64,000 bases of DNA from Escherichia phage BP9. The notes under the pieces are model-generated. The model worked only from the letters and a program-made list of their open reading frames with translations. It did not search any database and was not told the DNA's origin. Positions 8,001-37,850 of this stretch are shown here, piece by piece (positions within the stretch are counted from its first letter, which is position 1; every line of letters starts with the position of its first letter). Both the position numbers and the translations under genes were made by a program. The stretch lies in sequence record PP488543.1. One strand, given 5' to 3'.

Positions 8001-8029
8001 TTGCTTTTGATGTATCTTTGTGGTAAAAT
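8001..8029 (+). promoter_or_regulatory. sigma70-type promoter (TTGCTT, 17 bp, TAAAAT with upstream TGG)
   Basis: -35 TTGCTT 8001-8006, 17-bp spacer, -10 TAAAAT 8024-8029; member of recurring TGGTAAAATAC family. Confidence 0.6.
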
Positions 8030-8047
8030 ACATTAGTGAGGGATATA

Positions 8048-8506
8048 ATGCTAAAGGTTAAATGTCAAACAAGGTTCAACCTAAAGCGTTTAGATCGCTT
8101 CTACAAAGAACTTGTGAGACTTGAAAGTAAAACAATAACCTACGGCTTTTATGACGAACCTCACCCGTCAGGCTTAAATATGGCAACATTGGCAGCCATT
8201 CACAACTTCGGTTGGAACGGGCTGCCTGTTCGCAATTTCATGGAGACAGCCTTTGCATTTCACAGCACTCAACTACAGACCTTGACAGAAAAATTGTTGA
8301 GAGCTATGGCTAGAGGATCAAGTGCAGAGGCTATTCTTAAGCAGATGGGGGACACAGGGGCCAAAGCTATCCAGTTTGTTATTGAGGCTGGGCAGTTTAG
8401 TAATCCTACTGTTAGCGAGCAGTGGGCACAAGAGAAAGGCTTCAACGAGGCTATGCGGCATTACGATGTGCTGCTTGAATCTGCAACCTTTAAAATCGGA
8501 CAGTAA
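8048..8506 (+). CDS. hypothetical head completion/connector protein
   Basis: ATG 8048 with SD GAGGG; track GTG start 8036 lies too close to promoter -10. Confidence 0.3.
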   Translation: MLKVKCQTRFNLKRLDRFYKELVRLESKTITYGFYDEPHPSGLNMATLAAIHNFGWNGLPVRNFMETAFAFHSTQLQTLTEKLLRAMARGSSAEAILKQMGDTGAKAIQFVIEAGQFSNPTVSEQWAQEKGFNEAMRHYDVLLESATFKIGQ

Positions 8507-8520
8507 AATAAGGGGGTTGA

Positions 8521-8946
8521 GTGGCAGCAGGTTATAAGCTGATAGGAAAGAACAGACTAATACCTCGTAAAACATTCAAAGGTCGCCACAGAGTGTATAA
8601 CAAAACAGTTGGTGGCCCTTTTGCCAACGAGGGGTTAGAACTTGAGTATGAAGAGTTTGATGTCTTAGAGTGTGTTGTGCAGCCGTTGACAGGAAGGGCG
8701 GCTAAAGATTACTCCTCTCAAATAAACCCTGAAGGTGACAGACAGTACGAGGCTTTTACAGTTTACTCCTCAACCAAGTTGTATAGTCCGGATGAAGGAA
8801 CATACGCAATGGCTGATCAAATTCAACTTCCTGACATCCGTGGTGACTTGAAATGGTTTACCGTTTTAAAATGCGATGCATATGTTACCTCTGGTGGTGG
8901 GAGATATAGATTTTTTGTGGTAGAAGAGCCTGAAGGAGAAAACTAA
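8521..8946 (+). CDS. hypothetical neck/head-closure protein
   Basis: 141 aa; GTG start with SD AAGGGGG. Confidence 0.3.
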   Translation: MAAGYKLIGKNRLIPRKTFKGRHRVYNKTVGGPFANEGLELEYEEFDVLECVVQPLTGRAAKDYSSQINPEGDRQYEAFTVYSSTKLYSPDEGTYAMADQIQLPDIRGDLKWFTVLKCDAYVTSGGGRYRFFVVEEPEGEN

Positions 8947-9497
8947 TGGAAGCTTTCGAAAAAGTTTTTTCTGATCTTGAAACAACCATTGCTAAGCTTG
9001 TCAAGGTTGCCACAGGAAGAACTGTAGTTCTGGCAGAAAGCTCTACCATACCGAAGCCGGAAGGTGAGTTTGTACTTTTACAAACCTTGGCGATCAATCC
9101 TACCACTTGGGAAGATAATGAGTTTCAAGATGCGGAGGGTAATGCTTACGTCACCCACAGCTATACTGTTACCTATCTGCTAACAGCTTATCGTGGCAGG
9201 GCATATGCTGCACTTAGCAGAGTATTGCAAGCAATAAATCTTCCAATGTTTTATGACAAGTATTTCCCTCTGGGGTCGTGCTTTGCCTACTCTAACAATT
9301 CAACAATCTCACCTCAAAGAGTGCCGTTGAATAAGCAGACGTATGAAAATAGAGCCACTGTGATGCTGACATTTAACGTAAGGTTTGTTGAAACAGACAT
9401 TGGGGCTTTTGAGGATCTTCAGGGAATTAAGGCTGAAATAACCACACACTTCCCTTCACCCAATTCTGGTAAAGCGGTTACAGACAGTGGTCAGTAA
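8946..9497 (+). CDS. hypothetical tail completion protein
   Basis: 183 aa; TAATG coupling to upstream gene. Confidence 0.3.
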   Translation: MEAFEKVFSDLETTIAKLVKVATGRTVVLAESSTIPKPEGEFVLLQTLAINPTTWEDNEFQDAEGNAYVTHSYTVTYLLTAYRGRAYAALSRVLQAINLPMFYDKYFPLGSCFAYSNNSTISPQRVPLNKQTYENRATVMLTFNVRFVETDIGAFEDLQGIKAEITTHFPSPNSGKAVTDSGQ

Positions 9498-9507
9498 TCG
9501 TTATAAT
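9478..9507 (+). promoter_or_regulatory. sigma70-type promoter upstream of sheath gene
   Basis: -35 TTACAG 9478-9483, -10 TATAAT 9502-9507, spacer 17-18 bp; overlaps 3' end of previous gene. Confidence 0.45.
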
Positions 9508-9512
9508 TGTGT

Positions 9513-9556
9513 AGTGTAATGATTACACTGCGTGTTTGATATCCGTGCACAGATAT
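9513..9556 (+). promoter_or_regulatory. two palindromic operator-like elements in sheath gene leader
   Basis: AGTGTAAT-G-ATTACACT (9513-9529) and ATATCcGTGCACaGATAT (9539-9556) between promoter and SD. Confidence 0.4.
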
Positions 9557-9569
9557 TAAGAGGAAACAA

Positions 9570-10946
9570 ATGCCATATTTAGATAAGGTGGTAGATGTTA
9601 CAGTTAACCTCGGAACCCAGCCTATTGACACTGTAGGTTTCGAAACTCCCCTGTTCATCGCTATCCACAACAACTTTACTGAGCGAGCTCGCGTATATGC
9701 GGAGCTGGATCAGATGGTGGAAGATGGTTTCGCACAAGGCTCTGCAGCGTATGAGTTTGCAGCAAAAGCTTTTGGTGGTGTATTCCCTCCACAATACGTT
9801 ATGATCGGCAGACAGGCCAAAGAAAAGACCACTGTAGATTTTAAAGGTATTGCTGCCGCAGCTGATACCGATGTCGTAATGACTATTGCAAAAGGTAGCT
9901 ACAATACTTCTTTGATAGTGCCTATCTCTGGTGGAACAGGTGCAACTCAGATTGCAGAGTCAATGAAGACTAAAATTGAAGCAGATGATAGCTTGAACGA
10001 TATCACTGTAGAGGCTGCTGAAGGTGTTCTCACCATCACTGGTAACTGCACTGTTGGTTATCATACTGGTAACTACACAATCAAAAATATCGCCAATGCT
10101 GAAAAACCTTCTACAGTAGTTGATAAGATCAATGCTGAGCGTGACAATTGGTACTTCCTGTGCCATGAAGACCACACCGACATTGAAGCATGTGCCAAGT
10201 GGGCTCAGGCTAACTATAAGCTGCATGTCTACTCTACTGCAGAAGATGTGACTGGCAAAGATAATAACATCGCCACCAAACTGATGGCTGCACAGTATGA
10301 CAGTGTCGGCATGTACGATCCTCGTGCTGATAAAGATTTTCCAGAGGGTGGTATCGTAGGCGCTATGGCATCCAACGATCCGTCTTACGGTGACAGCTTG
10401 CACTTAAAACAGATGCCGGGTGTGATTGCACCATCTCTGACTTTAACTCAGCGCATGGCGATTTGGGAAAACCACGTTAACTTCTATAGAATGATTAACG
10501 GTGTTGGTGCTTTCTGGGAAGGTAAGTGTGCTTCAGGTCAGTATGCAGACGCTATTCGTTTTGCACACTGGATCAAGTTCAGATCTGAAGAATCTATGTT
10601 TGGGTACATGCATCGCCGCTCCAACATGGGTTTAAGCATGAAGATGTCTGATGATGATCTTCCGGTTATCAAGTCTGTCTTGATGAACAACCCAATCAAC
10701 ACTGGCATTAAGAATGGTGCGATCCTGACAGGTTTCGACGAAGACAATAATGTATTCTACGACCCGATCATTACAGTTCCTAAACGTGCAGAAATCCCAA
10801 CTAATCAGTTGGCTGCTCGTGTTCTGGAAGGTGTGAAAGTAGAACTGGTGTATAACAACGCCCTGCACTTCGTTCGTATCCGGATCAACGTCCTTCTGGA
10901 CAAAGTTGGTTCTAAATCCACCAATGCTGTTGCAATGACTGAATAA
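9570..10946 (+). CDS. putative tail sheath protein (alternatively major tail protein)
   Basis: 458 aa; gene order large protein, 157-aa protein, chaperone pair, tape measure; baseplate genes downstream support a contractile tail. Confidence 0.5.
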   Translation: MPYLDKVVDVTVNLGTQPIDTVGFETPLFIAIHNNFTERARVYAELDQMVEDGFAQGSAAYEFAAKAFGGVFPPQYVMIGRQAKEKTTVDFKGIAAAADTDVVMTIAKGSYNTSLIVPISGGTGATQIAESMKTKIEADDSLNDITVEAAEGVLTITGNCTVGYHTGNYTIKNIANAEKPSTVVDKINAERDNWYFLCHEDHTDIEACAKWAQANYKLHVYSTAEDVTGKDNNIATKLMAAQYDSVGMYDPRADKDFPEGGIVGAMASNDPSYGDSLHLKQMPGVIAPSLTLTQRMAIWENHVNFYRMINGVGAFWEGKCASGQYADAIRFAHWIKFRSEESMFGYMHRRSNMGLSMKMSDDDLPVIKSVLMNNPINTGIKNGAILTGFDEDNNVFYDPIITVPKRAEIPTNQLAARVLEGVKVELVYNNALHFVRIRINVLLDKVGSKSTNAVAMTE

Positions 10947-10956
10947 GGAAGCCTAG

Positions 10957-11430
10957 ATGGAAACTCAAATTTTAACTCCTTATGCGTATGACCCTAAAAA
11001 GGTCAAACTGTATCTGATGCAGCAGCGTGTCACTGGCTTCGCTGCTGACACCAAGATTGTTGTTTCAAGAAACGAAGACAACATTTATCCTCACGTTGGT
11101 GTGGATGGTGAAATGTCTGCGGCTCTGTCCCGTAACCAATCTGGTGTTATGACTGTATCTTTGCAGAACACTTCTGTATGGAACGCTTACCTTTCTGACT
11201 GGCAGAAACAGGCATCGATCACTGGCCTGGTATTCTTCCCGGTTCTGCTGGAAGGTAGCCAGGGCCCCGGTATTTCCACAATCGGTTGGATCCAGAAACA
11301 GCCTGACCTGACTTACGGAACCGAAGTAGGTCAACTGGACTGGGATATCGGTATTCTGGATGCATGGCTCAACCGTGACAACATCACTGGTGCTCTCACT
11401 GGCCTCGCAGGTCTTGCAGGTATTATCTAA
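10957..11430 (+). CDS. putative tail tube protein
   Basis: 157 aa directly after sheath candidate. Confidence 0.45.
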   Translation: METQILTPYAYDPKKVKLYLMQQRVTGFAADTKIVVSRNEDNIYPHVGVDGEMSAALSRNQSGVMTVSLQNTSVWNAYLSDWQKQASITGLVFFPVLLEGSQGPGISTIGWIQKQPDLTYGTEVGQLDWDIGILDAWLNRDNITGALTGLAGLAGII

Positions 11431-11448
11431 GGGCACACTTTAGCATAG

Positions 11449-11478
11449 GCCTCACCTTCGGGTGGGGCTTTTTGCTTT
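11449..11478 (+). terminator. intrinsic terminator
   Basis: GCCTCACC-TTCG-GGTGGGGC then TTTTTGCTTTT. Confidence 0.75.
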
Positions 11479-11520
11479 TATGGTTTTGACACACGTTCTT
11501 GAATTGCTTGAAAGGTTAAA

Positions 11521-11549
11521 TTGACAATGCACCATAATCATGGTAAAAT
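11521..11549 (+). promoter_or_regulatory. sigma70-type promoter (TTGACA, 17 bp, TAAAAT) with flanking inverted repeat
   Basis: -35 TTGACA 11521-11526; -10 TAAAAT 11544-11549; 9-bp inverted repeat TGCACCATA (11528-11536) / TATGGTGCA (11557-11565) brackets the -10. Confidence 0.65.
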
Positions 11550-11592
11550 ACACAAATATGGTGCACAACATGACTAATAAGGATGCTATAAA

Positions 11593-12066
11593 ATGGCTAT
11601 AAACTTTAGACCTACAACAGAGATTGATTTAGCAGGGCACAACTTTGTGATCACCCACTGGGGACCGATGAAAGCAATGAAAAATATGCCTAAAATCGGT
11701 AAGATTGTGGCTGTCCCGCTAGGTGCTATCGGTGGATCTATTATCTCAGGTGGTCAGAATATGGCAGAGGTCCTTCCTACTGCTCTGGCTTACCTGTTCC
11801 AAGAACTTGATGATAACTCTATTGAAGAGTTATTTAAAATTTTGTTCGAAGATATTACCGTAGATGGTGTGGATAAGCTTAACCCGGATGTTGTGTTTGC
11901 AGGGCATCTGCTGGAGATGATTAAGCTGGCAGGTAAGGTTCTGGAGGTTAACTACGGCTGTTTTTTCACACAAGACGGTTTAGGAAGCCTTCTGGAGATG
12001 TTACAGCAGATGGGTATGATTCAGCAGGTGAACAACCTGGATCAGACTCCGGAAGAGCAGGAATAA
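11593..12066 (+). CDS. tail assembly chaperone (G-like)
   Basis: 157 aa between tube and tape measure; contains slippery heptamer; acidic C-terminus. Confidence 0.6.
   Translation: MAINFRPTTEIDLAGHNFVITHWGPMKAMKNMPKIGKIVAVPLGAIGGSIISGGQNMAEVLPTALAYLFQELDDNSIEELFKILFEDITVDGVDKLNPDVVFAGHLLEMIKLAGKVLEVNYGCFFTQDGLGSLLEMLQQMGMIQQVNNLDQTPEEQE
11961..11967 (+). promoter_or_regulatory. -1 programmed ribosomal frameshift slippery site T_TTT_TTC
   Basis: Heptamer in zero frame of chaperone gene; -1 frame is open from 11952 to 12326. Confidence 0.5.
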
Positions 12067-12077
12067 GCAAGGTTGTT

Positions 12078-12326
12078 GTGAGGGCCAGTGAGTGGGCAGC
12101 CAAGAACAGTTCACTAAACTGGTTCGACTTTCTTTGGTGCAGGGTGCTCAAGAATTTCAAAGGGGAAAATTTTGAATCGCTAAATCTTGCAGATATGGCG
12201 TATTTCCTGAAGCTCTGTGAGTATCTTGATATCGAAGAATTCCTAGATACCGTCCAAAACAGGGAAATGGAGCGGGAGCAGAAGGCTGCCGCAGCTGCTG
12301 CGAAAGCTAAGCGCAGGAGAGGATAA
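12078..12326 (+). CDS. frameshift extension ORF of tail assembly chaperone (GT-like product)
   Basis: ORF in -1 frame relative to chaperone, open from 11952; basic Ala/Lys-rich C-terminus. Confidence 0.5.
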   Translation: MRASEWAAKNSSLNWFDFLWCRVLKNFKGENFESLNLADMAYFLKLCEYLDIEEFLDTVQNREMEREQKAAAAAAKAKRRRG

Positions 12327-12330
12327 TCTA

Positions 12331-12368
12331 AGGGCCGGATTCCTTTTCTGGGATCTGGCCCTTTTTAT
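12331..12368 (+). terminator. intrinsic terminator
   Basis: AGGGCCGGATTCC-TTTTCT-GGGATCTGGCCCT imperfect hairpin then TTTTTATT. Confidence 0.55.
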
Positions 12369-12380
12369 TATGAGGAAACC

Positions 12381-14717
12381 ATGGCTACAAACAAAATAGT
12401 TGCCACAACAGTCAACAAGATTGGCTTTGAGATAGAGAACTCCTCCTACAAAAAAGCTGTAGAGAAAATTCGCAGTATTGGGAGGGAGTTCAGGAAACTG
12501 GGCGAAGATTTTAACTCAGCCAACCCCATGAGTAGATGGCAGGCGGTAGCTGTTAAAACCCAGCAGACAATGCAGCGGGTTGCCAGACAGCAATCTCAGG
12601 CAAATGCTAAGCTGCACAGGGAGAGCGTAGCACAGGCCAAGAAAGAGGCTGCAGTAAGGGCTGCAATAGAACGTAGGGAGAATGCGAGACGTAAACAAGC
12701 TGTAGGTAATCTTACCGCTAAAAATCCAGAAATGGCTAGGATGCGTAAGTTCTACCAGCAGCAAGCTAAAGAGGCCAAAAAGGCTGCCAAATCTGCACCA
12801 GTGTCTTACGGTGGTTATAAGGCACCTAAGGCAAGAGTTCTTGCTAACGCCAAGTCTTTCAGATATATTCCAGGCAACCCGAACATGGGTGGGGTGGCTT
12901 CAGATCCTAATCTTGTTAAAGCCCAGACCGCTGCCATGAACCGTTATCACAGACAGCTAAGAAGGGACGGTAAAGCTGGTATGGATAATAGGCTTATGTC
13001 GGATCGTGAGGCAAGAAGAACCCACCTCTACAACTCCGCGATAAGACTTTCTGCCAAGTATGGTGCCGGATTCCGTGGAAGCTTGCCAGGATACTCAGAG
13101 TTAGAGTCCAGGTTTGCTCGCGGGGAGATGAAAAAGTCAACATTTAACGCCCACTTGTCAGCGCTGCAGTCTGGATTTAAAAGCGCCACCAGCCAAACGC
13201 TTACACTAGGCGATGCCATGAGAGACTTACGTAGATCTGTTATTAATGCAACAGCTGCGTATACAGCTTTTTCTGGATTTGCTGCGGTTAACAGATCCGG
13301 TCACATGATGGAGGGGGCAAGTGCTGCTCTTACTGCTGTTACTGGAGATCCAAACAAAGCCAACAGTGAGGTTGCGTTTGTCCAGCAAGAGGCTATGCGT
13401 CTTGGTTTTGATCTCAAATCTGGTCTTCAAGGTTACGCCCAGATGTCGGTAAACGCCAAAAACCAGATGACAAATCAGGAAGTGCATGAGCTGTTTTCTG
13501 CATACTCCCAGTATGCTGCTGCTTATGGTGCTGATGAGGTAAAATATCAGCGCGGTATCATGGCAATCCAGCAGATGCTTGGCAAGGGACAAGTAATGTC
13601 CGAGGAACTGAAGCAACAGCTTGCTGAAGCATTACCTGGTGCATACGAACCTTTTATCAAGGCCACCAAAGAGGCTTTTGGTCTTTCTGAACTCTCCATG
13701 GATCAGTTCATGGACATGATGAAGAAAGGTGAGGTTAAAACAGCCAAGATCATGAAGTATGTGGCTAAGTACATGAACGAGGCATCTGCAGCTGGTTATG
13801 AAAGAATGCAGAAGTCTAACGTGCTGGCAGAAAACAGACTGAAAACCTTCATTGAACTGACTCGTCAGAAACTGTTCACCCGTTGGTCTGACGAACTAAC
13901 AGAGTTCTATTATACACTAATCCGCACTGGTGAGACTCTGCAATTTGTGTGGGATGCCTCTGGTGATTTTGTTAGCGGGTTTGTGAGAGGCCTTAACTGG
14001 GTAGTTGGTGAACTAAACAACACTATAGTCAAGATCCGCATGTTTTTCCTTGAATGGGGGATTAAATGGGGATTCATAACAGCTAAGACGAAGGAATATT
14101 CTGAAGAGCTTCATGACACCTTTAGCTATGCTAGATGGGCAGGGTTTGCTGCTGCCATCATGCTGGTAGTCAACGCCCTAACAAAAGGTTTTGTCATGGC
14201 ATCCATGCTTGTAAAAACCTTTAAATTCCTTAACTCTTTAAGAGGTGCAGCTGGAGCAGCTGGTGTCGCTACTGCAGAAGGATCTGGTGGTGGAGCTCCG
14301 GCAGGAAAAGGTGGAGGTGGCCTCAAGACACCTGGTGGCAAAGTTGGTCTGCTTGGTAAGCTGGGTATTATCGGTACAATATTAAGCGCAGGGGAATTAT
14401 TTAATGACCGTTTCAACCCACTAAGTGAAAGAAATCAGCAGCTGGACACTATCAGCGATATGATTCGCAAAGATATCATATCAGGAGGTAACGGGTTTGT
14501 TAATCCTTTGGACACCTTACCGGGCGGGACTCTTCCGTTGCCAGGTGGCCCCGGTTTTGCTTCTCAATTAAGAACTATGGAAATGCTACCTTTAGAGATC
14601 AGTGATGGGAAAATCACGATTTCAATAGATGAGGGTGAGTTTAACAAAATATTTGATGCAAAACTTGAGTGGGAGAACAATAAAGATATCAACTTCATGT
14701 CTACCGACCTTTGGTAA
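12381..14717 (+). CDS. tail tape measure protein
   Basis: 778 aa; helical repeats, Gly-rich hydrophobic segment (GGGAPAGKGGGGLK...GIIGTILSAG); follows chaperone pair. Confidence 0.8.
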   Translation: MATNKIVATTVNKIGFEIENSSYKKAVEKIRSIGREFRKLGEDFNSANPMSRWQAVAVKTQQTMQRVARQQSQANAKLHRESVAQAKKEAAVRAAIERRENARRKQAVGNLTAKNPEMARMRKFYQQQAKEAKKAAKSAPVSYGGYKAPKARVLANAKSFRYIPGNPNMGGVASDPNLVKAQTAAMNRYHRQLRRDGKAGMDNRLMSDREARRTHLYNSAIRLSAKYGAGFRGSLPGYSELESRFARGEMKKSTFNAHLSALQSGFKSATSQTLTLGDAMRDLRRSVINATAAYTAFSGFAAVNRSGHMMEGASAALTAVTGDPNKANSEVAFVQQEAMRLGFDLKSGLQGYAQMSVNAKNQMTNQEVHELFSAYSQYAAAYGADEVKYQRGIMAIQQMLGKGQVMSEELKQQLAEALPGAYEPFIKATKEAFGLSELSMDQFMDMMKKGEVKTAKIMKYVAKYMNEASAAGYERMQKSNVLAENRLKTFIELTRQKLFTRWSDELTEFYYTLIRTGETLQFVWDASGDFVSGFVRGLNWVVGELNNTIVKIRMFFLEWGIKWGFITAKTKEYSEELHDTFSYARWAGFAAAIMLVVNALTKGFVMASMLVKTFKFLNSLRGAAGAAGVATAEGSGGGAPAGKGGGGLKTPGGKVGLLGKLGIIGTILSAGELFNDRFNPLSERNQQLDTISDMIRKDIISGGNGFVNPLDTLPGGTLPLPGGPGFASQLRTMEMLPLEISDGKITISIDEGEFNKIFDAKLEWENNKDINFMSTDLW

Positions 14718-14727
14718 TAAACTGTGC

Positions 14728-14755
14728 AGGGGGCTCCGGCCCCCTTTATTTTATC
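14728..14755 (+). terminator. intrinsic terminator
   Basis: GGGGGC-TCCG-GCCCCC then TTTATTTT. Confidence 0.8.
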
Positions 14756-14759
14756 GGTG

Positions 14760-14788
14760 TTGTAAAAACAGCTATTTTATGATACAAT
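14760..14788 (+). promoter_or_regulatory. sigma70-type promoter (TTGTAA, 17 bp, TACAAT with TG extension)
   Basis: -35 14760-14765, -10 14783-14788 preceded by TGA; palindrome ATCTAGAT 14789-14796. Confidence 0.5.
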
Positions 14789-14821
14789 ATCTAGATGGTA
14801 TCGGAGTGTCCTGGAGAGGTT

Positions 14822-15706
14822 ATGCCAAGCAATATAGTTGATGAAAAAGACCTGTACAAGCCTCAAGAGGTTAAATCTCCAAAGGCTGAAAAGGCAGAGC
14901 AGCAAACTGAAAGCGATGTAAAGTACACTATGTTTGTCAGCGGTCTTAACTATGGTGGTCGCAATACGGAGATGAAGGGTAAAAACTTTACTAACGATCT
15001 TGCCATTATCTTCGACCAGGTTGAGAACTATTCTTTCAAACATTCTGTTGATAAGACTGATTTTGCAGTGGAAGATAAATCTACCCTGTCAGACCACGCT
15101 GTAATTAAAGATGGTGTATTTTCTTTTACTGGTAGGGTAAATACATCACCACATATAATCTATGAGCAAAACTACATTGACAGGAATACTGACTCTAAAA
15201 ACCCTGCAGCATCTATGCGACCGGGCGCTGCACTGGAGGCTTTGACTGAAATCATTAATAAGCGCCAATTGGTTTCTTTGGTTACCGAGGAAAGACTCCT
15301 TGAGAACTACATTATAACCAGCCTTTCTGCCAGCAAGTCTGTTGGCGAAGGTGCTGCAATGGTTTTTGATGTAGAGCTTACAGAGTTCCGCACATTCTAC
15401 TTGAACAAGGTTGTTAATGCAACTGTATACAGCAATCCTAAGAAAGTAGGCAAGACCCAACAAAAAGGTGCTGTCAACGACTGTAAGAATGGTAGTAACG
15501 TAGGTAACAAGAGGGACACAGGAGCATTCGCAGACACTGCATCCACAAACGCTGCAGAGGAGTGGCAGCCATACAAATCTATGATGTGGACAGATGAAAA
15601 CGGTGTTACCCAATCGGCTGCGGATTGGTATTATCAGGAATATGGAAGACCTTCTACCATAGTCCCATCTGAGCAGGGAAACTACAACAAAGTTAACGGG
15701 AAATAA
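14822..15706 (+). CDS. hypothetical tail/baseplate protein
   Basis: ATG 14822 with SD GGAGAGG (track start 14795); first gene after tape measure. Confidence 0.4.
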   Translation: MPSNIVDEKDLYKPQEVKSPKAEKAEQQTESDVKYTMFVSGLNYGGRNTEMKGKNFTNDLAIIFDQVENYSFKHSVDKTDFAVEDKSTLSDHAVIKDGVFSFTGRVNTSPHIIYEQNYIDRNTDSKNPAASMRPGAALEALTEIINKRQLVSLVTEERLLENYIITSLSASKSVGEGAAMVFDVELTEFRTFYLNKVVNATVYSNPKKVGKTQQKGAVNDCKNGSNVGNKRDTGAFADTASTNAAEEWQPYKSMMWTDENGVTQSAADWYYQEYGRPSTIVPSEQGNYNKVNGK

Positions 15707-15718
15707 GGGGAGCGTATA

Positions 15719-18509: not shown

Positions 18510-18518
18510 GGAGAAATC

Positions 18519-25703: not shown

Positions 25704-25734
25704 AACTATCATGATTGTTTAACCGGGAGGCACA

Positions 25735-27302: not shown

Positions 27303-30300
27303 TGCCAATTGCAATGATTGATAACATCGTTGCTTCTGCAAGATCTTCAAGTTATGACTGGAACGCATCCAAGGCAGCTCTGGCTGACAGCCTGAACACT
27401 GTTACCACCAGAACTCTGGATAAGATTTTTGAGGGTAACAAATCTTACAGAAGTCAGCAAGATAGACAAAAGCTTCTCAGATCTTCTGCTGCACCCTGCT
27501 CTGTAGTGTATGGAAAGACACGCACATCTGGATTGCTTGCGTTTTTGGAGCAGGATAGAGACAAAACCCTCCATTGTGCTATTGTTCTTGCCAATCACCC
27601 TCTGGAAGGTATAGAAGATATACTTATCGATGGTAATCCTATTTCCTCGTATGGAGATTTGGTATCGTGGGAGTTACATAACGACAGAAAAACGGCTGAT
27701 CCTTTCATGGGGACACACTGCCCATCGTGGTCACCAGACATGATAGGTAGAGGGATCAGTTGGCTACGTGCCAGCTTCAAGTTCGACCCTAACAAGTTTC
27801 CTTTTGGGTTGCCAAACGTTACACTCGTTAAGGTTGGTAAAAAATGCTATGATCCTCGTATCAGTAAAGAGGTGTACACCAATAACGCATCCTTGGTGAT
27901 CCTGGACTATTTAAGAACGTACCTTAAATGTCCTGACGAAACCATCAACTGGGAGTCCTTTAAGGAGGCTGCCAACATATGCGACGAGGCGGTAAAAAAC
28001 GCTGACGGAACCAGTGAGCGACGTTACACCATTAACGGTGAGTTTGACATGGATGAGGCCCCAGCAAGTATTATGGCAGAAATGCTGAAAGCTTGCGGTG
28101 CAGACCTTAGTTATGTTGCTGGTAAGTATGGTTTGCTGGTTGGTGCATACTATGGTCCGGCAACAATGACATTGAGTGAGGACTGTGTCTGTGGTGAGGT
28201 TAAGATCTATCCGGAAGCCTCATTTGACAAAAGATCTAACACAATAACTGGCAGATTCACTAGTCCGACCAAAGGGTATTCTGAAACAGATTTCCCATCA
28301 GTGTTTGTCCCAGAGTGGATAGAGAAGGATGGAGAAAGAAAGATAATCGATATAGACTATCGCTTTGTTACCAGTCCTTATCAAGCTCAACGTGTTTCTG
28401 CAATCTTCTTAAGACGTGCTAGAGCTGGCAGGATTATTGAAGTCACCTGCAATATGCGAGGTTTTAAATTTAAGCCTGGCCGTTACGTTACAATGAATCT
28501 CCCAAGTATTGGTATAGTAGGCCAAGAAATGAGGGTTCTTGAATGGGAGTTCACCAAAAAGGGTGGTGTCAAGGTAAAACTTCGTCAAGATGCTAAAGAG
28601 TGGAATGATGCCACAGGGCAACTTCCGGATTCTGGTGATGTAGATATTCCGATATCTCCATCTGGTGTAGCTCAACCGCAAAACTTCAGATACTCCGTCC
28701 TCCAAGCTGGGGAAATAACTCACGGTGTTCTGGCTTGGGACAACGTTGGGACTTACGCTCAAAATATTGTGCAGGTAAGAAAGAACGGAGAGATTGTTTG
28801 GACAGCACAGACAGTTGAGCAGTTTGTCCGAGTAGAAGGCTTGACCAAAGGGTCATACACAGCAACCGTGGTTGCAACATCTTATAAAGGTGGTGTATCT
28901 CCAGAAGCGTACTGCGAGTTTAACATTCAGGCACCTGAAGCTCCTGTTTCTGTAGAGGTTAAGCAGGGATACTTTGCTATCACCTTGATTCCACACAGCA
29001 GGGATTTAGCAAGTGTAAGCACCCAGTATGACTTTTGGACATCTGGTATGACAAGGTTGCCCGACACCAGCGATGCAACCGTTACTTCAAACGCCACCCG
29101 TATGGGTGTTGGTTCAACTTGGACATCCGAAGGTCTGCAGAACGATAAGGTTTATTATTGGTATATTCGAACCACAAACGCTTTTGGTAGCTCTCAGTTT
29201 GTAGAGTGTGCTGCACGCTGCTATACCTCCATTGAGGATTTGATGCCTCAGATAGATGCTGAATTCAAAAAGACAGAAACTTATAAAGAGTTGATGAGCA
29301 CTTTGGATTCCTCTATTGAAGAGGTTGAAAATCGTGTCACAGAACTTAACAGGTACATGGATGGTAGAGTTGACGAGGCTTTTGACCACATGGAAGGTGA
29401 GTTCTCTAGAGTAGACAAGCTGTATGCTCAGTTGGGAGATAGGGTTGGAATATTCATCCAAGAAACCCACGACAACTTCCAGGACGTTAATGGAACGCTT
29501 ACCACTCTAGATCAGAAACTGGTAGCCACTCAGAACAAGTTTGCAGATGATCTTTCTAAAGAAAGTGGCAAGCTTGCTTCTCTAATCCAGACCACTAACA
29601 AAGCTACAACCGATCTGTTAAATCAGAAAACTGAAGCTTTGGACGAGAAGATTGTTTCAACCAGGGGTGAGTTGGAAGATGCTTTAGCGCAGGAAAGCTC
29701 TGAGCTGAACTCCCTGATTGTATCAACCAATAAAACGACTACAGATCTCCTTAATCGGAAAACCGAGGCTTTAGACAATAAGCTGACGGCAACGAAAGGT
29801 GAGTTGACCAACAATCTGCAGAATGAGAGTGCTAAACTATCGTCCTTGATTGAGTCAACCAACAAATCCACCACTGATCTTCTTAATAAGAAAACAGAGG
29901 CGTTGGATGAAAAACTGGTTGCTGCACAGGGCGAGTTGACTGAGCAGATCGGAGATGTTGAAAAAGGCTATCTGGCTGGTGATAAGAGCCTAGAGGGCAA
30001 GTTGAATACTCAAAGATCTGAGTTGGATGCGAGCATTCTGAGCACTAACCAGGCCACTGTGGACTTGCTGAACAGAACTTCTGAGACTCTTGACCAGAAG
30101 ATTAGCCAGACCAACGCCACAGTGTCCAAAAACTACACCACGCTTGATGGTAAGATAAACACCGCCAAGTCTGATCTTAATACGTTGATTTCTACCACCA
30201 ACAAGGCCACAACTGACCTGTTGAATCAGAAAACGGCAGCTTTGACTGAGCAGTTAACCACTGCTAAAGGGCAGATTACAACCAACACCAATAATATTAC

Positions 30301-31447
30301 TGGGTTGGACAATAAGCTGACTCAGACGAAGAAAGACTTGTCTGCGAATATTTCTGAAACTAATAACGCCACTGTTGATCTGATTAACGGCACAGCGTCA
30401 GCTATTCGTCAAGAACTTGCTGTTGCTAAGCAGGAGATCATTGATGGTGTTGGCGATGTGTCCGAGATCAGGGCTGCAGTAGCTACAACAGCTAAGGCTG
30501 TGACCGACTTAGAGGGTAAAGTAAATGCTCAGTGGGGTACAAAAATACAGGTAGACTCCGCAGGGAATAAATATGTTGCAGGTATCCAGTTGGGGATGGA
30601 AGGGTCTGGGGGCCAAGTTCAATCCTACTTCATGGTTAGTGCAAACAATTTTGCGGTATACAATCCTGGCAATGGAACAGCAACCCTTGCTTTCGCAATC
30701 AAGAACAACCAAGCGTTCTTGAAAGACGCTTTTATAGAGAATGGCACGATCTCCTCTGCCAAGATCGCACAAGAAATTTCGTCAAACAACTACGATGGCA
30801 ACGGGTACCATAAATACGGTTGGTATATTAACAAGAACGGGCACGCCCAATTTATGGATGTGTGGGTGAAAGGCAACATCAACGCCAGTTCTGGTAACTT
30901 CACAGGGGCAGTTAACGCCACTAGTGGTACCTTCCGTGGGGATGTTTATGCCAATAATGGTAGCTTTAGAGGCACCATAGATGCAACCGGAGGTACCTTC
31001 CGTGGTCGTGTAGAAGCTTCTGTTATCCGTGCCAACCAGTTCGAAGGTGCAATTGTTGCACACAGGACTTACGGGGATTGTGCTCCAGTATATAACTCTC
31101 AGCAAAGGGTTTGCCGTTGGAGGTGGAGATACGTAGATAACGTTTCAGGTCAGGGTAAGAACGTAACATTCTTCTTTAAACTGAACGGTACTCTTGCCAG
31201 CTCCCAACTGAATGCATGGATAGCTGGTCATCAGATCCTTGCTGGCAAGAAGTATTTTAACGACAACAACGGCATGTGTGCGGTAGGGATAACAGGTCTG
31301 GGTGAACAAACTATAGACATTGTTATCGAGATTTACACACCGTGGTCAACGTCGAGCGTGACAGGTGTCACAATCTCCTGTCCCACTGTGATAGTAAGTC
31401 GTTCAAACTCTAGCTTCCAGGGACCTTGGAACGAGTCTCACGACTAA
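27302..31447 (+). CDS. central tail fibre / host specificity protein (lambda gpJ-like) with inserted coiled-coil repeats
   Basis: 1381 aa; FN3-like segment and YVAGIQLGMEGSGG...FMVSANNFAVYNPGNG region parallel lambda J; 5-6 tandem TNKxTTDLLNxKTEALDxKL repeats. Confidence 0.75.
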   Translation: MPIAMIDNIVASARSSSYDWNASKAALADSLNTVTTRTLDKIFEGNKSYRSQQDRQKLLRSSAAPCSVVYGKTRTSGLLAFLEQDRDKTLHCAIVLANHPLEGIEDILIDGNPISSYGDLVSWELHNDRKTADPFMGTHCPSWSPDMIGRGISWLRASFKFDPNKFPFGLPNVTLVKVGKKCYDPRISKEVYTNNASLVILDYLRTYLKCPDETINWESFKEAANICDEAVKNADGTSERRYTINGEFDMDEAPASIMAEMLKACGADLSYVAGKYGLLVGAYYGPATMTLSEDCVCGEVKIYPEASFDKRSNTITGRFTSPTKGYSETDFPSVFVPEWIEKDGERKIIDIDYRFVTSPYQAQRVSAIFLRRARAGRIIEVTCNMRGFKFKPGRYVTMNLPSIGIVGQEMRVLEWEFTKKGGVKVKLRQDAKEWNDATGQLPDSGDVDIPISPSGVAQPQNFRYSVLQAGEITHGVLAWDNVGTYAQNIVQVRKNGEIVWTAQTVEQFVRVEGLTKGSYTATVVATSYKGGVSPEAYCEFNIQAPEAPVSVEVKQGYFAITLIPHSRDLASVSTQYDFWTSGMTRLPDTSDATVTSNATRMGVGSTWTSEGLQNDKVYYWYIRTTNAFGSSQFVECAARCYTSIEDLMPQIDAEFKKTETYKELMSTLDSSIEEVENRVTELNRYMDGRVDEAFDHMEGEFSRVDKLYAQLGDRVGIFIQETHDNFQDVNGTLTTLDQKLVATQNKFADDLSKESGKLASLIQTTNKATTDLLNQKTEALDEKIVSTRGELEDALAQESSELNSLIVSTNKTTTDLLNRKTEALDNKLTATKGELTNNLQNESAKLSSLIESTNKSTTDLLNKKTEALDEKLVAAQGELTEQIGDVEKGYLAGDKSLEGKLNTQRSELDASILSTNQATVDLLNRTSETLDQKISQTNATVSKNYTTLDGKINTAKSDLNTLISTTNKATTDLLNQKTAALTEQLTTAKGQITTNTNNITGLDNKLTQTKKDLSANISETNNATVDLINGTASAIRQELAVAKQEIIDGVGDVSEIRAAVATTAKAVTDLEGKVNAQWGTKIQVDSAGNKYVAGIQLGMEGSGGQVQSYFMVSANNFAVYNPGNGTATLAFAIKNNQAFLKDAFIENGTISSAKIAQEISSNNYDGNGYHKYGWYINKNGHAQFMDVWVKGNINASSGNFTGAVNATSGTFRGDVYANNGSFRGTIDATGGTFRGRVEASVIRANQFEGAIVAHRTYGDCAPVYNSQQRVCRWRWRYVDNVSGQGKNVTFFFKLNGTLASSQLNAWIAGHQILAGKKYFNDNNGMCAVGITGLGEQTIDIVIEIYTPWSTSSVTGVTISCPTVIVSRSNSSFQGPWNESHD
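29560..30440 (+). repeat. in-frame tandem coiled-coil repeats (about 37-40 aa units) inside J-like gene
   Basis: Protein-level repeats with synonymous divergence at DNA level. Confidence 0.7.
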
Positions 31448-31454
31448 CCTTTAA

Positions 31455-31483
31455 AGCCCCGCTTCGGCGGGGTTTATTTTTAT
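31455..31483 (+). terminator. intrinsic terminator (CCCCGCTTCGGCGGGG family)
   Basis: AGCCCCGC-TTCG-GCGGGGT then TTATTTTTAT. Confidence 0.85.
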
Positions 31484-31490
31484 GCTCAGA

Positions 31491-31519
31491 TTGACTATTG
31501 TTACAAAATTTGGTAAAAT
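31491..31519 (+). promoter_or_regulatory. sigma70-type promoter (TTGACT, 17 bp, TAAAAT with upstream TGG)
   Basis: -35 31491-31496, -10 31514-31519. Confidence 0.65.
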
Positions 31520-31552
31520 ACCTTGTAGAGATTTTCATACCGGAGGAGTGAC

Positions 31553-33043
31553 GTGGCTAAGTATGGATTGACAGAGGCTGGTTTCGTTATACCAACCCTA
31601 AATGACCTAATCGTTGAAACTAAGCAAAGCCTGATCCGTGCTTTTGGCGAAAACTTCAACGTACAGAGTAACTCCGTTGCAGATAAGCTGACCACTATCT
31701 TCAACGAGCGAGAGTATCAACTTATTCTTATGGCAGCATCTGTATACGCATCACAGACGCTGTATGGGGCAGAAGGTATTTACCTAGATGAGCTTCTTGG
31801 AAGACAGGGTATTTACCGAAGAGGCCGTTCTAAATCATCAGGTACCTGCCAGTTGACAATCAACACAACTGTGCCGTACAATATGATTTATGATTCCAAA
31901 ACTTATACGCTGGACAGTGGCAACTTTGTTCTTAGCAACGATGTGCAAGTAGCAGGGAATCTTATTGCTCACAGAATAAATGCTCCAGACCTAAGGATTG
32001 GGAAATACAACTTCCAAATTACCAACCAGACAGATGGAAGTATCAAAACAAAAAGCCTGGTTTTAACAGATAAGTCTCTGGACTCTTCTGATTTGCCAAG
32101 CTTTTACGGAGAGATTAAGCAATTCATTGTCGATAATACAACCCTGTTGAACGACGATTTGATTCAGATCGATATGTTGACAGGGACGTTGTGGATAGGG
32201 TACAATTCAAATCTTGATCAAGTTGGACTTAATAGCAGAGTAGATTTCAGAGTATCCCCGATTGTAGGGGAAAGAACTATCACACTGGATGTTATCGCTA
32301 ACGAGGCTGGTGAGCTGTCAAGAGAAGCAGAAACCGTGACAACAATGTCGCCTACTCCTAGTGGATTTATCAAGCTTACCAACCGAGAAAGATTCAATGA
32401 GGGCAGGGATGTTGAGAAAGACTCAGAGTATCGCTTAAGAGCTTCCAGCACAAAACAGTTAACATCGAAGGCTACCCGTCCTGCAATCCTTAGCGCTGTA
32501 AGCGAGGTAAAAGGTGTTGAGAAAGTGAGAGTGTTCTCCAACAACACCGATAAAACTGATGCTAAAGGTATACCTCCTTACAAGTTCCAAGTGGTTGTGT
32601 TTGGTGGTGCAACGGAGGACATTTGCCAAGCACTTTACCAAACTATAGCCTGTACGAACAGGACTTATGGTAATATTTTCTACGATATCACTACATCTGA
32701 CGGTCAAACTGAAAGAATTTATTACTCCAGGGCAAATACCTACCGCCTAGATGTAAGAATTACCTATTCCGGCGCTGCGCTTTCCACAACCGAAAAAGAT
32801 GCCATTGTAGAGGCTCTTTTGCAGGTTGTTAACGGACTTGATGTTGCAGATACGTTGTACAATATCCAATTGGTCGGTGCTGCATCCGCTGCTGTGTCGA
32901 TAGGTAGATTTAATAGACTGGTAATTCAAGTTAAACCAGTAGGAGCTTCTGATGAAGCTTACACGACAAACGATATTGTTGCGAACATGACCGAGGTGTT
33001 TGACCTCGACGAAAGTAATATAACTTTCCAACAAACTATTTAA
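31553..33043 (+). CDS. putative baseplate wedge protein (Baseplate_J-like)
   Basis: 496 aa; N-terminus MAKYGLTEAGFVIPTLNDL resembles baseplate J family; GTG start with SD GGAGG. Confidence 0.5.
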   Translation: MAKYGLTEAGFVIPTLNDLIVETKQSLIRAFGENFNVQSNSVADKLTTIFNEREYQLILMAASVYASQTLYGAEGIYLDELLGRQGIYRRGRSKSSGTCQLTINTTVPYNMIYDSKTYTLDSGNFVLSNDVQVAGNLIAHRINAPDLRIGKYNFQITNQTDGSIKTKSLVLTDKSLDSSDLPSFYGEIKQFIVDNTTLLNDDLIQIDMLTGTLWIGYNSNLDQVGLNSRVDFRVSPIVGERTITLDVIANEAGELSREAETVTTMSPTPSGFIKLTNRERFNEGRDVEKDSEYRLRASSTKQLTSKATRPAILSAVSEVKGVEKVRVFSNNTDKTDAKGIPPYKFQVVVFGGATEDICQALYQTIACTNRTYGNIFYDITTSDGQTERIYYSRANTYRLDVRITYSGAALSTTEKDAIVEALLQVVNGLDVADTLYNIQLVGAASAAVSIGRFNRLVIQVKPVGASDEAYTTNDIVANMTEVFDLDESNITFQQTI

Positions 33044-33054
33044 GGCGGCGAGAT

Positions 33055-35813: not shown

Positions 35814-35825
35814 TCAGGAGATAAA

Positions 35826-36866
35826 ATGTCAAAACCTAGTTTTCCATTAGAGATTTGGGCAGAGGAGGATCAGGTTCTGCCTAACACCCACAGACAGAAC
35901 AGGCTACGCCCGATTGATGATTTGTGGAGAAAAGGTTGGGATCTTGGTCAAAAGCCCTCATGTGAAGAACTTAACTATATTTTCAATATGCTCGGAACTT
36001 GGGCAAAATACATTGCTGACGAGCAGATCCCCGCTCAAGAAGGCCGTTATCTGGTACGTGATAATAACTTGAGTGATCTTTTGAACATCCCTGTTGCCCG
36101 TAGAAACCTTGGGATTATTACCAAGGAAGAGGCAGACGCCAGGTATGTAAAAGTTACAGGTGATACAATGACAGGCCCGTTGGGTTTGCAACGTATCAAC
36201 TTTAAAGCTGCCGAGACAGATAAGGCTTGGATAGAGACAACTATTGGCCCAGATAAGACAACTCTCGACTTCGGGTTAAGTGATAATATTGGGTCGTTTG
36301 ATGATGGTGGTACATCTACAGTAGATGCGTTTCGTTGGAGATTCCAGCCAACTCAGCCGGATATTAATCCAGAGTTCACTTTGATGTACCTTAACGCGAT
36401 CACGGCGAACCGTGCGCTGTTGAAAGTGGTAGGCAATGTTGAAGTTGTCGATAACATGAGGTGCAATAACCTTACTATCAGCAATACAGCAACATTCACC
36501 AACTGTAATGTGGCTAGTCAGTTGACGGCCGGGTCAGTATATGTTAATGGTGGTGCAAGTTGTGACAGCATGGTTGTAAGAAGTCAGCACTGTGTTGTCG
36601 GTAACAGAAATGTGGTTCGCTCTGTGAACGGAGTGACGGCTAACGGTAACGGTGATGTAACGATCACTATCCCGCAGACAGGTGTGCAAGACATCAGAAT
36701 CGGTGCAAGACTTGTTGACGGCGTTTCTGAATCTCCAATTCGCAACGGCTACGTTGTCACAGGCTGGCATTTCGGTGACAAAAAAGAGATGCGTGGTTCA
36801 ACCTACTGGGCAGGACCTTTACAAAAACTTGTAAATGGTCAATGGATCACTGTTAATTATGCATAG
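35826..36866 (+). CDS. tail fibre protein (P2 gpH-like) copy 1
   Basis: 346 aa; conserved N-terminus (PLEIWAEED...KGWDLGQKP) and C-terminal tip QKLVNGQWITVNYA; followed by Tfa chaperone. Confidence 0.7.
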   Translation: MSKPSFPLEIWAEEDQVLPNTHRQNRLRPIDDLWRKGWDLGQKPSCEELNYIFNMLGTWAKYIADEQIPAQEGRYLVRDNNLSDLLNIPVARRNLGIITKEEADARYVKVTGDTMTGPLGLQRINFKAAETDKAWIETTIGPDKTTLDFGLSDNIGSFDDGGTSTVDAFRWRFQPTQPDINPEFTLMYLNAITANRALLKVVGNVEVVDNMRCNNLTISNTATFTNCNVASQLTAGSVYVNGGASCDSMVVRSQHCVVGNRNVVRSVNGVTANGNGDVTITIPQTGVQDIRIGARLVDGVSESPIRNGYVVTGWHFGDKKEMRGSTYWAGPLQKLVNGQWITVNYA

Positions 36867-36880
36867 ATCGGAGGACTAGC

Positions 36881-37465
36881 ATGAAAATACTTCAAGAGTT
36901 TAAACTTTACCAACCGGGATCTGGCGAATACCACGCCAACAAGGAAACCAAAGAGCTGACCCCTCAAGAGGTTGAGGATTACACCGCATACACTGGGTAT
37001 TTTTTACGTAATGATGATGGCGATTGGTATGTGCAGTCACGAACATTACGACAAGAAAATCCGGGTTGTATCTTCCTACTTGTTGACGAGAAGGGAATTC
37101 TTAAGACATCTACAGAAGAACCTGATGCCTTATGGCCTGCTCCAGGTCTTCGTGTGGTTATCGCCAAAAAAGAAGAGGTACCAGAAAACATTATGCTTCA
37201 CCACGACGCTTTGCGTTTAGTTGGTGATGAATTTGTCACAGATAATGAATTCTTTGTTCAACAGGCAGAGGGTGTCATAGAGACAGAACTTGCTTGGGCT
37301 ACTGCTAGAATTGGTGCCTATCAAGACATGATTGACCTTGAATATGATCTTACTGATGACCAGAAACGTAACATCAGGGATTTGAAAATGTACAGGGTAA
37401 AACTTCTTGAAATAGATACATCTAAAGCCCCTGACATTTTCTTCCCGGAGCGACCTACCCTCTAA
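36881..37465 (+). CDS. tail fibre assembly chaperone (Tfa / gpG-like)
   Basis: 194 aa; C-terminal ...AWATARIGAYQDMIDLEYDLT...LKMYRVKLLEID...FFPERP typical of Tfa family. Confidence 0.75.
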   Translation: MKILQEFKLYQPGSGEYHANKETKELTPQEVEDYTAYTGYFLRNDDGDWYVQSRTLRQENPGCIFLLVDEKGILKTSTEEPDALWPAPGLRVVIAKKEEVPENIMLHHDALRLVGDEFVTDNEFFVQQAEGVIETELAWATARIGAYQDMIDLEYDLTDDQKRNIRDLKMYRVKLLEIDTSKAPDIFFPERPTL

Positions 37466-37476
37466 GAGGAGGTGTT

Positions 37477-37791
37477 GTGGAGTTGGATTTGGCGGCATTG
37501 TACGGTATCTGCATGGGTACCGTTGTCCCGATCTGTGTATGGGCTTTCAACCAGTGGCACACCAAATGGAAAGGCATTTCCAAGAGGCTGGATGAACTGG
37601 AGAAAGACCTCATCTTAGTGAAAAACAGTATGGTTACAAAAGATAAACTTGATTCCGTTATCGAGACCCGGTTAAGCAAGCTAGAGGCCGATATTAACGA
37701 CCTTAAGCAGGATGTCAGGACAGATGTCTCCGGCATCAGAGCTGATGTACAAAAGATTTTGCACATGCTTGTAGAGCATAGTAAAAGGTAA
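37477..37791 (+). CDS. small membrane-anchored coiled-coil protein of unknown function
   Basis: 104 aa; N-terminal hydrophobic helix LAALYGICMGTVVPICVWAF then heptad-rich region; strong SD AAGAGGAGG; last gene before terminator. Confidence 0.5.
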   Translation: MELDLAALYGICMGTVVPICVWAFNQWHTKWKGISKRLDELEKDLILVKNSMVTKDKLDSVIETRLSKLEADINDLKQDVRTDVSGIRADVQKILHMLVEHSKR

Positions 37792-37800
37792 ACAAAGGTC

Positions 37801-37830
37801 AGAACGGAAAGGACTCCGTTCTTGCATTTT
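37801..37830 (+). terminator. intrinsic terminator
   Basis: AGAACGG-AAAGGACT-CCGTTCT then TGCATTTTGTT. Confidence 0.7.
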
Positions 37831-37850
37831 GTTCTCTAAAGTGTTAAAAT
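37822..37850 (+). promoter_or_regulatory. sigma70-type promoter (TTGCAT, 17 bp, TAAAAT)
   Basis: -35 37822-37827 overlaps terminator tail; -10 37845-37850. Confidence 0.55.

Follow-up and report, generated by a model that had tools for sequence, protein, structure and literature searches.

Candidate sigma-70 extended -10 promoters in the virion-gene module of Escherichia phage BP9 and its relatives in the Vequintavirinae

In a stretch of 64,000 nucleotides from Escherichia phage BP9 (PP488543.1), referred to here as the window, eight intergenic sites share one composite motif: TTG at -35, a 17-bp spacer that ends in TGn, and a -10 hexamer, most often TAAAAT, that is followed by A. The motif exceeds its chance expectation, is restricted to the gaps of one strand of the late-gene module, and is conserved at orthologous positions across the subfamily Vequintavirinae. 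At a probability of about 0.78 we judge the eight sites to be genuine promoters of the virion-gene (late) module, built for the sigma-70 RNA polymerase of Escherichia coli, a judgement drawn from the letters of the DNA. We infer a transcript start some 7 nt after each -10 hexamer, the sigma-70 holoenzyme as the reader, and everything that concerns timing.

Eight sites with one architecture

The virion-gene module occupies window positions 1-46640 on the + strand and encodes terminase, portal, head, neck, sheath, tube, tape measure and baseplate proteins together with many fibre genes; the early genes are found from 46.7 kb on. Between positions 7000 and 16000 the window matches Escherichia phage VB-EcoM-WM (PQ014731) at every letter (100%), and over that stretch it shares about 97-98% identity with more than 100 Vequintavirus (rV5-like) coliphages; no relatives at 80-94% identity were present in the searched collection. 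PQ014731 (139 kb), rotated to start at window position 1, served as the whole-genome proxy. It carries small indels relative to the window outside 7000-16000, and past about 31 kb its coordinates equal the window coordinate plus 1 nt.

What do the eight sites have in common? All lie in gaps of the + strand, with a start codon and its Shine-Dalgarno sequence 18-70 nt downstream. TTG stands at -35 in every one, the whole -35 hexamer matching the consensus at 3 to 6 of its 6 positions. The spacer is 17 bp in 8/8 sites, TGn is found directly 5' of the -10 hexamer in 8/8, and A directly after it in 8/8. The -10 hexamer is TAAAAT in six sites; of the other two, one has TAGAAT and the other TACAAT. 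All eight hexamers match TATAAT at 5 of 6 positions, with A2 and T6 invariant. The -35, the spacer, the -10, the TGn and the co-oriented gene that characterize a sigma-70 extended -10 promoter are thus present at all eight.

In the description that follows, scores are those of the position weight matrix described below, P numbers refer to the promoter list published for phage rV5, and Gotham (L001 in our set) is a phage of the same genus. The weakest member (P064; TTGCCA, TGG, TAGAAT; score 14.0; Gotham 14821-14849) lies at 1801-1830, between the stop of the open reading frame (ORF) 250-1797 and a terminator at 1847-1868, and upstream of ORF 1900-3456, which the VB-EcoM-WM record labels as portal protein. 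The site at 3476-3505 (TTGCAA, TGA, TAAAAT; score 17.3; Gotham 16496-16524) precedes the head-gene block, whose start codon is at 3524. The highest score, 28.0, belongs to 8001-8030 (P056; TTGCTT, TGG, TAAAAT), which precedes a block of neck, tail-completion, sheath and tube genes extending from 8048 to 11430. At 11521-11550 (P051; TTGACA, TGG, TAAAAT; score 15.6) the match to consensus reaches 11 of 12 positions, plus the TG; the gene downstream, 11593-12066, is annotated as a tail assembly chaperone. The site at 14760-14789 (P048 region; TTGTAA, TGA, TACAAT; score 15.8; Gotham 27767-27795) precedes the baseplate/fibre block with its start codon at 14822. The three remaining sites are at 25675-25704 (P040; TTGCGT, TGG, TAAAAT; score 18.8), upstream of 25735-26325 and of the fibre gene 27302-31447; at 31491-31520 (P036; TTGACT, TGG, TAAAAT; score 20.2), upstream of the baseplate wedge homologue 31553-33043; and at 37822-37851 (P030; TTGCAT, TGT, TAAAAT; score 26.3), upstream of 37878-38924 and the distal fibre genes.

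Could such a set of sites arise by chance? The sequence TGGTAAAAT occurs five times in the window, always on the + strand, against an expectation of 0.78, and none of 100 shuffles reached five. TTG-N20-TAAAAT occurs seven times in the window against 1.18 expected. The exact sequence TGGTAAAATA is found only four times on both strands of the 139-kb genome, and every one of the four falls in a + strand gap of the late module. TGnTAAAAT was also counted across the late modules of six phages, the window and five relatives. On the + strand the gaps hold 1.80 copies per kb and the coding sequence 0.10, and the - strand holds about 0.02 (Fisher p = 1e-13), a strand-specific enrichment of 17-fold in gaps over coding sequence. 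A text search of the literature for TGGTAAAAT returned unrelated papers only.

A position weight matrix trained on 20 sites of four other genera only was used to scan both strands of the whole proxy genome, with a listing threshold of 8. Its top eight hits (given as the T of the TG, in proxy coordinates) are at 8021, 37843, 31512, 25695, 3496, 14780, 11541 and 1821, precisely the eight sites described above. Their scores range from 14.0 to 28.0; the peaks of five shuffled genomes range from 10.9 to 12.7, and the next real hit scores 12.6.

The -35 element emerges from the alignments as well. When 24 sites (8 of the window and 16 of other genera) were aligned on TG, the positions 20 to 18 nt upstream were T in 24/24, T in 23/24 and G in 17/24, and it is exactly here that column conservation peaks; the window sites in this alignment were partly drawn from a list based on TTG, while those of the other genera were picked by TGnTAnnnT inside gaps and a TAAAAT-like hexamer, the -35 being no criterion. 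In most of the 24 sites the TG has T and then R in front of it (TRTGn); the base after the hexamer is A in 21/24, and so is the third position of the -10 in 21/24. Among 31 TAAAAT hexamers in late-module gaps, collected irrespective of TG, 22 have both the TG and the TT of the -35 and eight have neither; a single hexamer has the TT without the TG, and the reverse was never found (p = 1.1e-6). The eight that lack both coincide with ribosome-binding sites or start codons. Of the gap sites of other genera 17/17 have TT at the -35 position, but of the chance occurrences of TGnTAAAAT inside genes only 1/12 (p = 3.5e-7). Since the -35, the TG and the -10 co-occur at exact spacing, we conclude that they form one composite signal with the geometry of the E. 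coli sigma-70 extended -10 promoter. The copy of TGGTAAAAT at 42950, which lies inside a gene and has no -35 TTG, was set aside as a chance match, as were the other in-gene matches to TGnTAAAAT.

How did the first-pass annotation of this DNA fare? It had listed seven stretches, five of them as a core and two as variants, and the letters of all seven are exactly as it gave them. The five core sites (8001, 11521, 25675, 31491 and 37822) do consist of TTG, a spacer of 17 bp (5/5) and TAAAAT; the TGG said to be usual before the -10 is found in 4/5, with TGT in the fifth, and of the A(C) said to follow the hexamer the A is found in 5/5 and AC in 3/5. The variant at 14760 is a true member. The other, at 9478-9507, is not: it matches the -35 at 2/6 positions, has a spacer of 18 and no TG, scores below 8, and is absent from both the rV5 list and the Gotham annotation. 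The motif search over the full genome that the annotation had called for therefore retains six of the seven listed sites as members, ranks the eight sites at the top, and adds two that had been missed, 1801 and 3476.

How might these elements be read? In E. coli, extended -10 promoters of the form TRTGnTATAAT are said to have been described by Mitchell and colleagues in 2003 as being read by region 3 of sigma-70. The sites resemble these in having TG one base 5' of the -10 (8/8), TR before the TG in most of the 24 aligned sites, a tolerance of weak -35 elements and a spacing of 17 bp. They differ in the A at the third -10 position, where the consensus has T, and in the A after the hexamer; their uniformity goes beyond the host consensus. 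We envisage that region 4 of sigma-70 would contact the TTG at -35, region 3 the TG of the extended -10, and region 2 the TAAAAT, all across a fixed spacer of 17 bp. With the extended -10 present, a -35 matching at 3/6 to 6/6 positions would suffice.

Next to the promoter with the highest score there is a perfect AT palindrome, TTTTTAAAAA (inside CAGTTTTTAAAAATTG), at window positions 7975-8000; it abuts the -35 of the 8001 promoter. It is no terminator, and could be an A/T tract resembling an UP element.

Conservation across the Vequintavirinae

We compared the virion modules of PVP-SE1 (Seunavirus), Mydo (Mydovirus), POP17 (Certrevirus), A7_1 (unclassified), Hena1 (Henunavirus) and TH18 (unclassified), all Vequintavirinae, and took one Phapecoctavirus as the outgroup. 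In five of these lineages, chosen by a sheath-protein search, the identity of the sheath protein to that of the window is 51-59%; TH18 was chosen by DNA similarity (about 69%).

In the reverse test a matrix was built from the eight window sites and applied to these modules. In most of the six lineages 3-9 hits on the + strand exceed the shuffle maxima; in Mydo and TH18 the shuffle maxima are higher and the clear hits number only 4-5. The hits fall in the gaps 5' of the orthologues of rV5 gp056, gp063, gp048 and gp036 and of the terminase. No hits above the shuffle range were obtained in the Phapecoctavirus outgroup, and the class is accordingly not evident outside the Vequintavirinae.

When orthologous gaps are aligned, the -35 and extended -10 blocks are invariant, whereas the spacers and flanks have diverged. 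In the gap 5' of the gp056 orthologue, which holds the 8001 promoter, the -35 TTGCTTTTG/TTGATTTTG and the sequence TGTGGTAAAATA are invariant in five genera while the flanks diverge. In the gap 5' of the gp063 orthologue, which holds the 3476 promoter, TTGCAAAA...GTGwTAAAATAA is kept in four genera, including PVP-SE1, Mydo and A7_1; the matrix hits in Hena1 and TH18 carry the same sequence. The gaps orthologous to that of 14760 in PVP-SE1, Mydo, POP17, A7_1 and TH18 contain a terminator and then TGnTAAAAT, and the motif is present in the gaps orthologous to that of 31491 in PVP-SE1, Mydo, POP17, A7_1, Hena1 and TH18. The terminators 5' of the gp036 and gp048 promoters keep their structure in the relatives, while their stem sequences differ.

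A similar sequence occurs at the start of a gene for a small membrane protein in four relatives. Here TTG-N17-TGyTAAAATy is found in PVP-SE1 (L005 39150), POP17 (L007 22126), A7_1 (L008 29389) and TH18 (L013 37495). It was rejected, for its TGyTAAAAT overlaps the start codon (ATG TTA AAA). Most simply it would be conserved coding sequence; an internal promoter for the downstream fibre gene is a conceivable second reading.

Terminators and transcription units

How do the promoters divide the module? The first-pass annotation had each of its sites following an intrinsic terminator. This holds for 11521, 14760, 25675 and 31491, all four of which have a strong terminator before them, and weakly for 37822. 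A terminator after the tube gene (11447-11470, + strand as are all those described here; 10 pairs, 6 of them GC, followed by a T-tract; t052 in rV5) ends 51 nt 5' of the 11521 promoter; one after the tape-measure gene (14728-14745; t049) lies directly 5' of the 14760 promoter; one with 8 GC pairs (25643-25662; t041) lies directly 5' of the 25675 promoter; and another (31454-31475) directly 5' of the 31491 promoter. The hairpin at 37801-37822 is weak and only terminator-like (8 pairs, 4 of them GC), and its tail overlaps the -35 of the 37822 promoter. On the other hand, 8001 follows a gene stop at 7994 and no hairpin, and the rejected 9478 site follows no terminator either. Directly 5' of the 1801, 3476 and 8001 promoters no terminator was found.

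Conversely, four strong terminators have no class promoter after them. That at 1847-1868 (8 pairs; t064ABC) lies 3' of the 1801 promoter and 5' of the start codon at 1900. A strong one after the major head gene (6411-6434; 10 pairs, 9 of them GC) has no matrix hit nearby. One at 12330-12363 (t050) stands 17 nt before the tape-measure gene, and one at 40963-40984 (t028) stands before the gene 41004-46640, which encodes an 1878-residue Ig-like protein. Since no class promoter follows these four, read-through is needed; in the case of 6411 it is the genes from 6469 to 7994 that need it. The terminator at 12330 is probably an attenuator for the same reason. That at 1847 could be an attenuator lowering the output of ORF 1900-3456, or else a stabilizing 5' hairpin. 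The + strand late module ends in a terminator at 46655-46676 (t026/t027), convergent with genes of the - strand.

The notion that the module is cut into separately promoted units is therefore correct in part: pairs of terminator and promoter do exist, but three of the eight promoters lack a preceding terminator and four terminators lack a following promoter. We propose that the promoters would restart transcription before the portal gene, the head genes, the neck-sheath-tube genes, the chaperone and tape-measure genes, the baseplate genes and three blocks of fibre genes. The terminators between blocks would be insulators where a promoter follows and, probably, attenuators where none does, the two jointly setting relative dosage. 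The arrangement suggests that dosage is controlled by attenuation.

The rejected site at 9478-9507 overlaps something else, a conserved structured leader 5' of the tail sheath gene (window 9470-9569), the TATAAT of the site falling in a genus-specific insertion within it. The leader is found in relatives (L005 19872-20000; L008 15347-15458; L012 19104-19222; L013 21789-21914; L014-L024). Its form there is known from 11 unique sequences, which come from Seunavirus, Henunavirus, Certrevirus-like and unclassified phages: an element about 85-90 nt long, made up of three hairpins, an invariant GUCAAUAAYYGU and then the ribosome-binding site. The first hairpin, GGUUAUUGAUARGC-N4-GCUUAUYRGUGAY, includes several G-U pairs; the second is GC-rich, with at least seven different stem sequences in one fold and no U-tract after it; the third is YRGCAC-loop-GUGCUG. 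One stem varies by compensatory changes and two by G-U wobble changes. The minimum free energy is -32 to -40 kcal/mol, and Rfam gave no match at E <= 1. In the window the leader is reduced to a helix GGTTAC-N12-GTAATC and a hairpin of its own at about 9511-9531. It may be a processing or stabilizing signal for the abundant sheath/tube messenger RNA, setting it apart from the low-copy neck genes of the same unit.

Competing readings

What stands in the way of reading the eight sites as promoters for the sigma-70 polymerase? Several points weigh against it. For no phage of the Vequintavirinae, a subfamily called 'poorly studied' in a 2025 preprint, did the searched literature yield mapped transcript starts, a time course by RNA-seq or transcription in vitro. 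Within the genus, the window and Gotham differ at 0 of 86 key positions and at 5 of 524 others, too few differences for statistical power. At 1801-1900 the order is promoter, terminator, gene, and Gotham has the same order. A near-consensus promoter such as 11521 would be expected to fire immediately on DNA entry, which fits a late role poorly unless firing is delayed. Lastly, the -10 TAAAAT and the A that follows it vary much less than sigma-70 would require, and less than the -10 of the early promoters of this phage, which hints at an extra constraint.

The first-pass annotation considered it plausible that the host polymerase reads the sites without a phage sigma factor. The sigma-70 layout and the lack of a gp55 homologue speak for this; both the activity of the sites and their independence of phage factors are predictions from sequence. 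Might the sites instead make up a temporal class of their own among promoters of the sigma-70 type? In that case the host polymerase would read them only after a phage protein has modified or retargeted it, or only after relief of a repressor, with TGnTAAAATA as the factor's signature. In a related version, a protein that blocks recognition of the -35 would silence the early promoters with TTGACA and leave those with an extended -10 working.

Encouragement for a separate class comes from comparison with early promoters. In Certrevirus these read AAAA(N3)TGTTGAC(N19)TATAAT and are found in the early-gene region, some of them near DNA replication genes (Buttimer et al. 2020, PMC7344957), a concentration that favours a division by time. 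Like our sites, they and the early promoters of rV5 (Table S4A/B of the paper on that phage) come from the same subfamily and have the two hexamers of host promoters. They differ in that the early class has the consensus TTGACA, often an upstream A-tract, a variable -10, and locations in early and replication regions on the strand of the local genes, whereas the late class has only TTG fixed in its -35, a fixed TGnTAAAATA, and locations in the virion-gene module only. The same contrast exists within one genome, where the late -10 (TAAAAT and A) is near-invariant and the early promoters combine consensus TTGACA with a variable -10. At 53412-53482, the counterpart of the P010/P011 region of rV5, the window has early promoters placed back to back between the divergent genes 52391-53446 and 53481-54422: the one on the - strand is TTGACA-17-TAAGAT, that on the + strand TTGACT-17-TATAGT.

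In PVP-SE1, Mydo and TH18 a late-type promoter is followed after 4 nt by TTGACA-17-TGATAATAT, both 5' of the same gene, a redundant arrangement if the two were always read alike. These tandem promoters (TGwTAAAATr, 4 nt, TTGACA-17-TGATAAyAT) are at 1460-1525 in PVP-SE1 (L005), 4000-4065 in Mydo (L006) and 620-690 in TH18 (L013); in PVP-SE1 the pair is located in the tRNA region, 5' of the rv5_gp070 homologue. They suggest that the two classes may be used at different times.

Is there a candidate for the factor? The gene 52391-53446 (- strand) encodes a protein of the Srd family, the homologue of rV5 gp11 (Srd-like) and labelled 'anti-sigma factor' in the VB-EcoM-WM record; an Srd-like protein is the only candidate factor noted in the literature. 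Its functional label is uncertain. It has no Pfam match, and its best PHROG label is HNH endonuclease (2.9e-110), ahead of 'decoy of host sigma70' (4.6e-13) and 'Srd anti-sigma factor' (1.9e-9). In T4, Srd is linked to stimulation of RNase E and not to promoter switching. No factor was identified, though not every early protein was scanned for sigma-like or other transcription-factor domains, and neither AsiA nor MotA has a homologue. Moreover, about 40% of the early promoters that rV5 Table S4 lists carry TGn as we read them, so that the extended -10 is not exclusive to the late class, and the conserved -35 TTG argues that the contacts of region 4 are still used. The strict late -10 and the tandem promoters thus leave room for class-specific control by a phage factor, which we put at about one chance in four.

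Far less probable is that the sites are late promoters of the T4 type, in which a gp55-like phage sigma factor would read a -10-only element with help from the sliding clamp. The authors of the rV5 paper suggested promoters of the T4 type, having noted that TggTAaAAtA resembles the T4 element TATAAATA (PMC3606486), and the sites share with the promoters read by gp55 together with gp33 and gp45 an A/T-rich -10-region motif confined to virion genes; the unusual strictness of the -10 points the same way. Yet TATAAATA itself is present in 0/8 sites, and both the TTG at -35, at a fixed 17 bp, and the TG at -15/-14 are conserved, neither of which T4 late promoters need. A phmmer --max search of 1544 stop-to-stop segments of at least 40 amino acids from the genome revealed no homologues of T4 gp55, gp33, gp45, RpbA, DsbA, AsiA or MotA, though very distant ones would be missed; the best E-values were above 1 for each of gp55, gp33 and gp45, 0.59 for AsiA and 0.046, in the noise, for MotA. 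The absence of TATAAATA, the conserved -35 and TG, and the lack of any homologue of the T4 factors together disfavour this explanation. Nor do the sites look like T4 middle promoters, dependent on AsiA and MotA: homologues of the two are lacking, and the -35 reads TTGnnn rather than a MotA box.

It is slightly less probable again that the motif is no promoter at all but a by-product of AT-rich gaps and of the T-tracts of terminators, or a signal at the RNA level such as a processing site. The -35 does read TTT in 6/24 of the sites aligned above; all six belong to other genera, and several of them have a TTT that merges with the T-tract of a terminator. The window sites, however, have TTG in 8/8 and not TTT, and three of them lack an upstream terminator. 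Such a by-product would hardly be enriched 17-fold on one strand with three elements at exact spacing, nor would a matrix from other genera pick exactly these eight sites out of 139 kb.

Earlier descriptions and significance

How much of this was known? The paper on phage rV5 (Kropinski et al. 2013, Virol J 10:76, PMC3606486) described TggTAaAAtA as 'putative late promoters' in its Table S4C, listing P064, P056, P055, P051, P048, P040, P036 and P030. It also reported 33 sigma-70-like promoters (11 with an extended -10) and 20 terminators, and found no homologue of gp33, gp45 or gp55 in rV5 (PMC3606486). The genus and the sites are the same: seven of our eight sites are in Table S4C, the five core sites being P056, P051, P040, P036 and P030, and the sequences of rV5 and of the window are identical or one base apart (the single difference falling in the spacer, 3' of the -10 or on the third base of the -10). 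P036 and P051 are listed there as sigma-70 promoters too, at 10/12 matches. The accounts differ in that the rV5 paper set the motif beside the T4 late consensus without remarking on the fixed TTG at -35, that the 3476 site is absent from Table S4C, and that P048 was aligned on another 10-mer. We did not retain P055 (window 8918, TGGTAGAAGA), which lies inside the end of a gene, has a -10 without the final T, and falls below 8 on the matrix. In the GenBank record of Gotham seven of the eight sites have a counterpart marked 'promoter predicted by PhagePromoter', while the remaining one lies outside the stretch that was fetched; this annotation and the rV5 paper reached the same sites independently.

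For the type phage, the motif has thus been on record since 2013, together with the number of its copies and their association with late genes, and the sites were already marked by annotation pipelines. What is added here is that each site is a complete sigma-70 extended -10 promoter in its layout, with a fixed TTG at -35, and not a T4-like element of a -10 only; that orthologous positions are kept in seven lineages of the subfamily; and that within the module terminators paired with a promoter stand alongside others that no promoter follows. This is of use for the annotation of Vequintavirinae genomes and for the engineering of therapeutic rV5-like phages.

The biological question that it raises is how strong promoters of the host type stay late, if late they are. 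One answer, which we hold to be doubtful and a shade less likely than class-specific control in general, is that TRTGnTAAAATA with TTG marks a late class common to all Vequintavirinae and read only by sigma-70 polymerase that has been altered by a phage protein other than gp55, gp33, AsiA or MotA. If this were true, it would be a new route to the timing of late genes in large virulent myoviruses.

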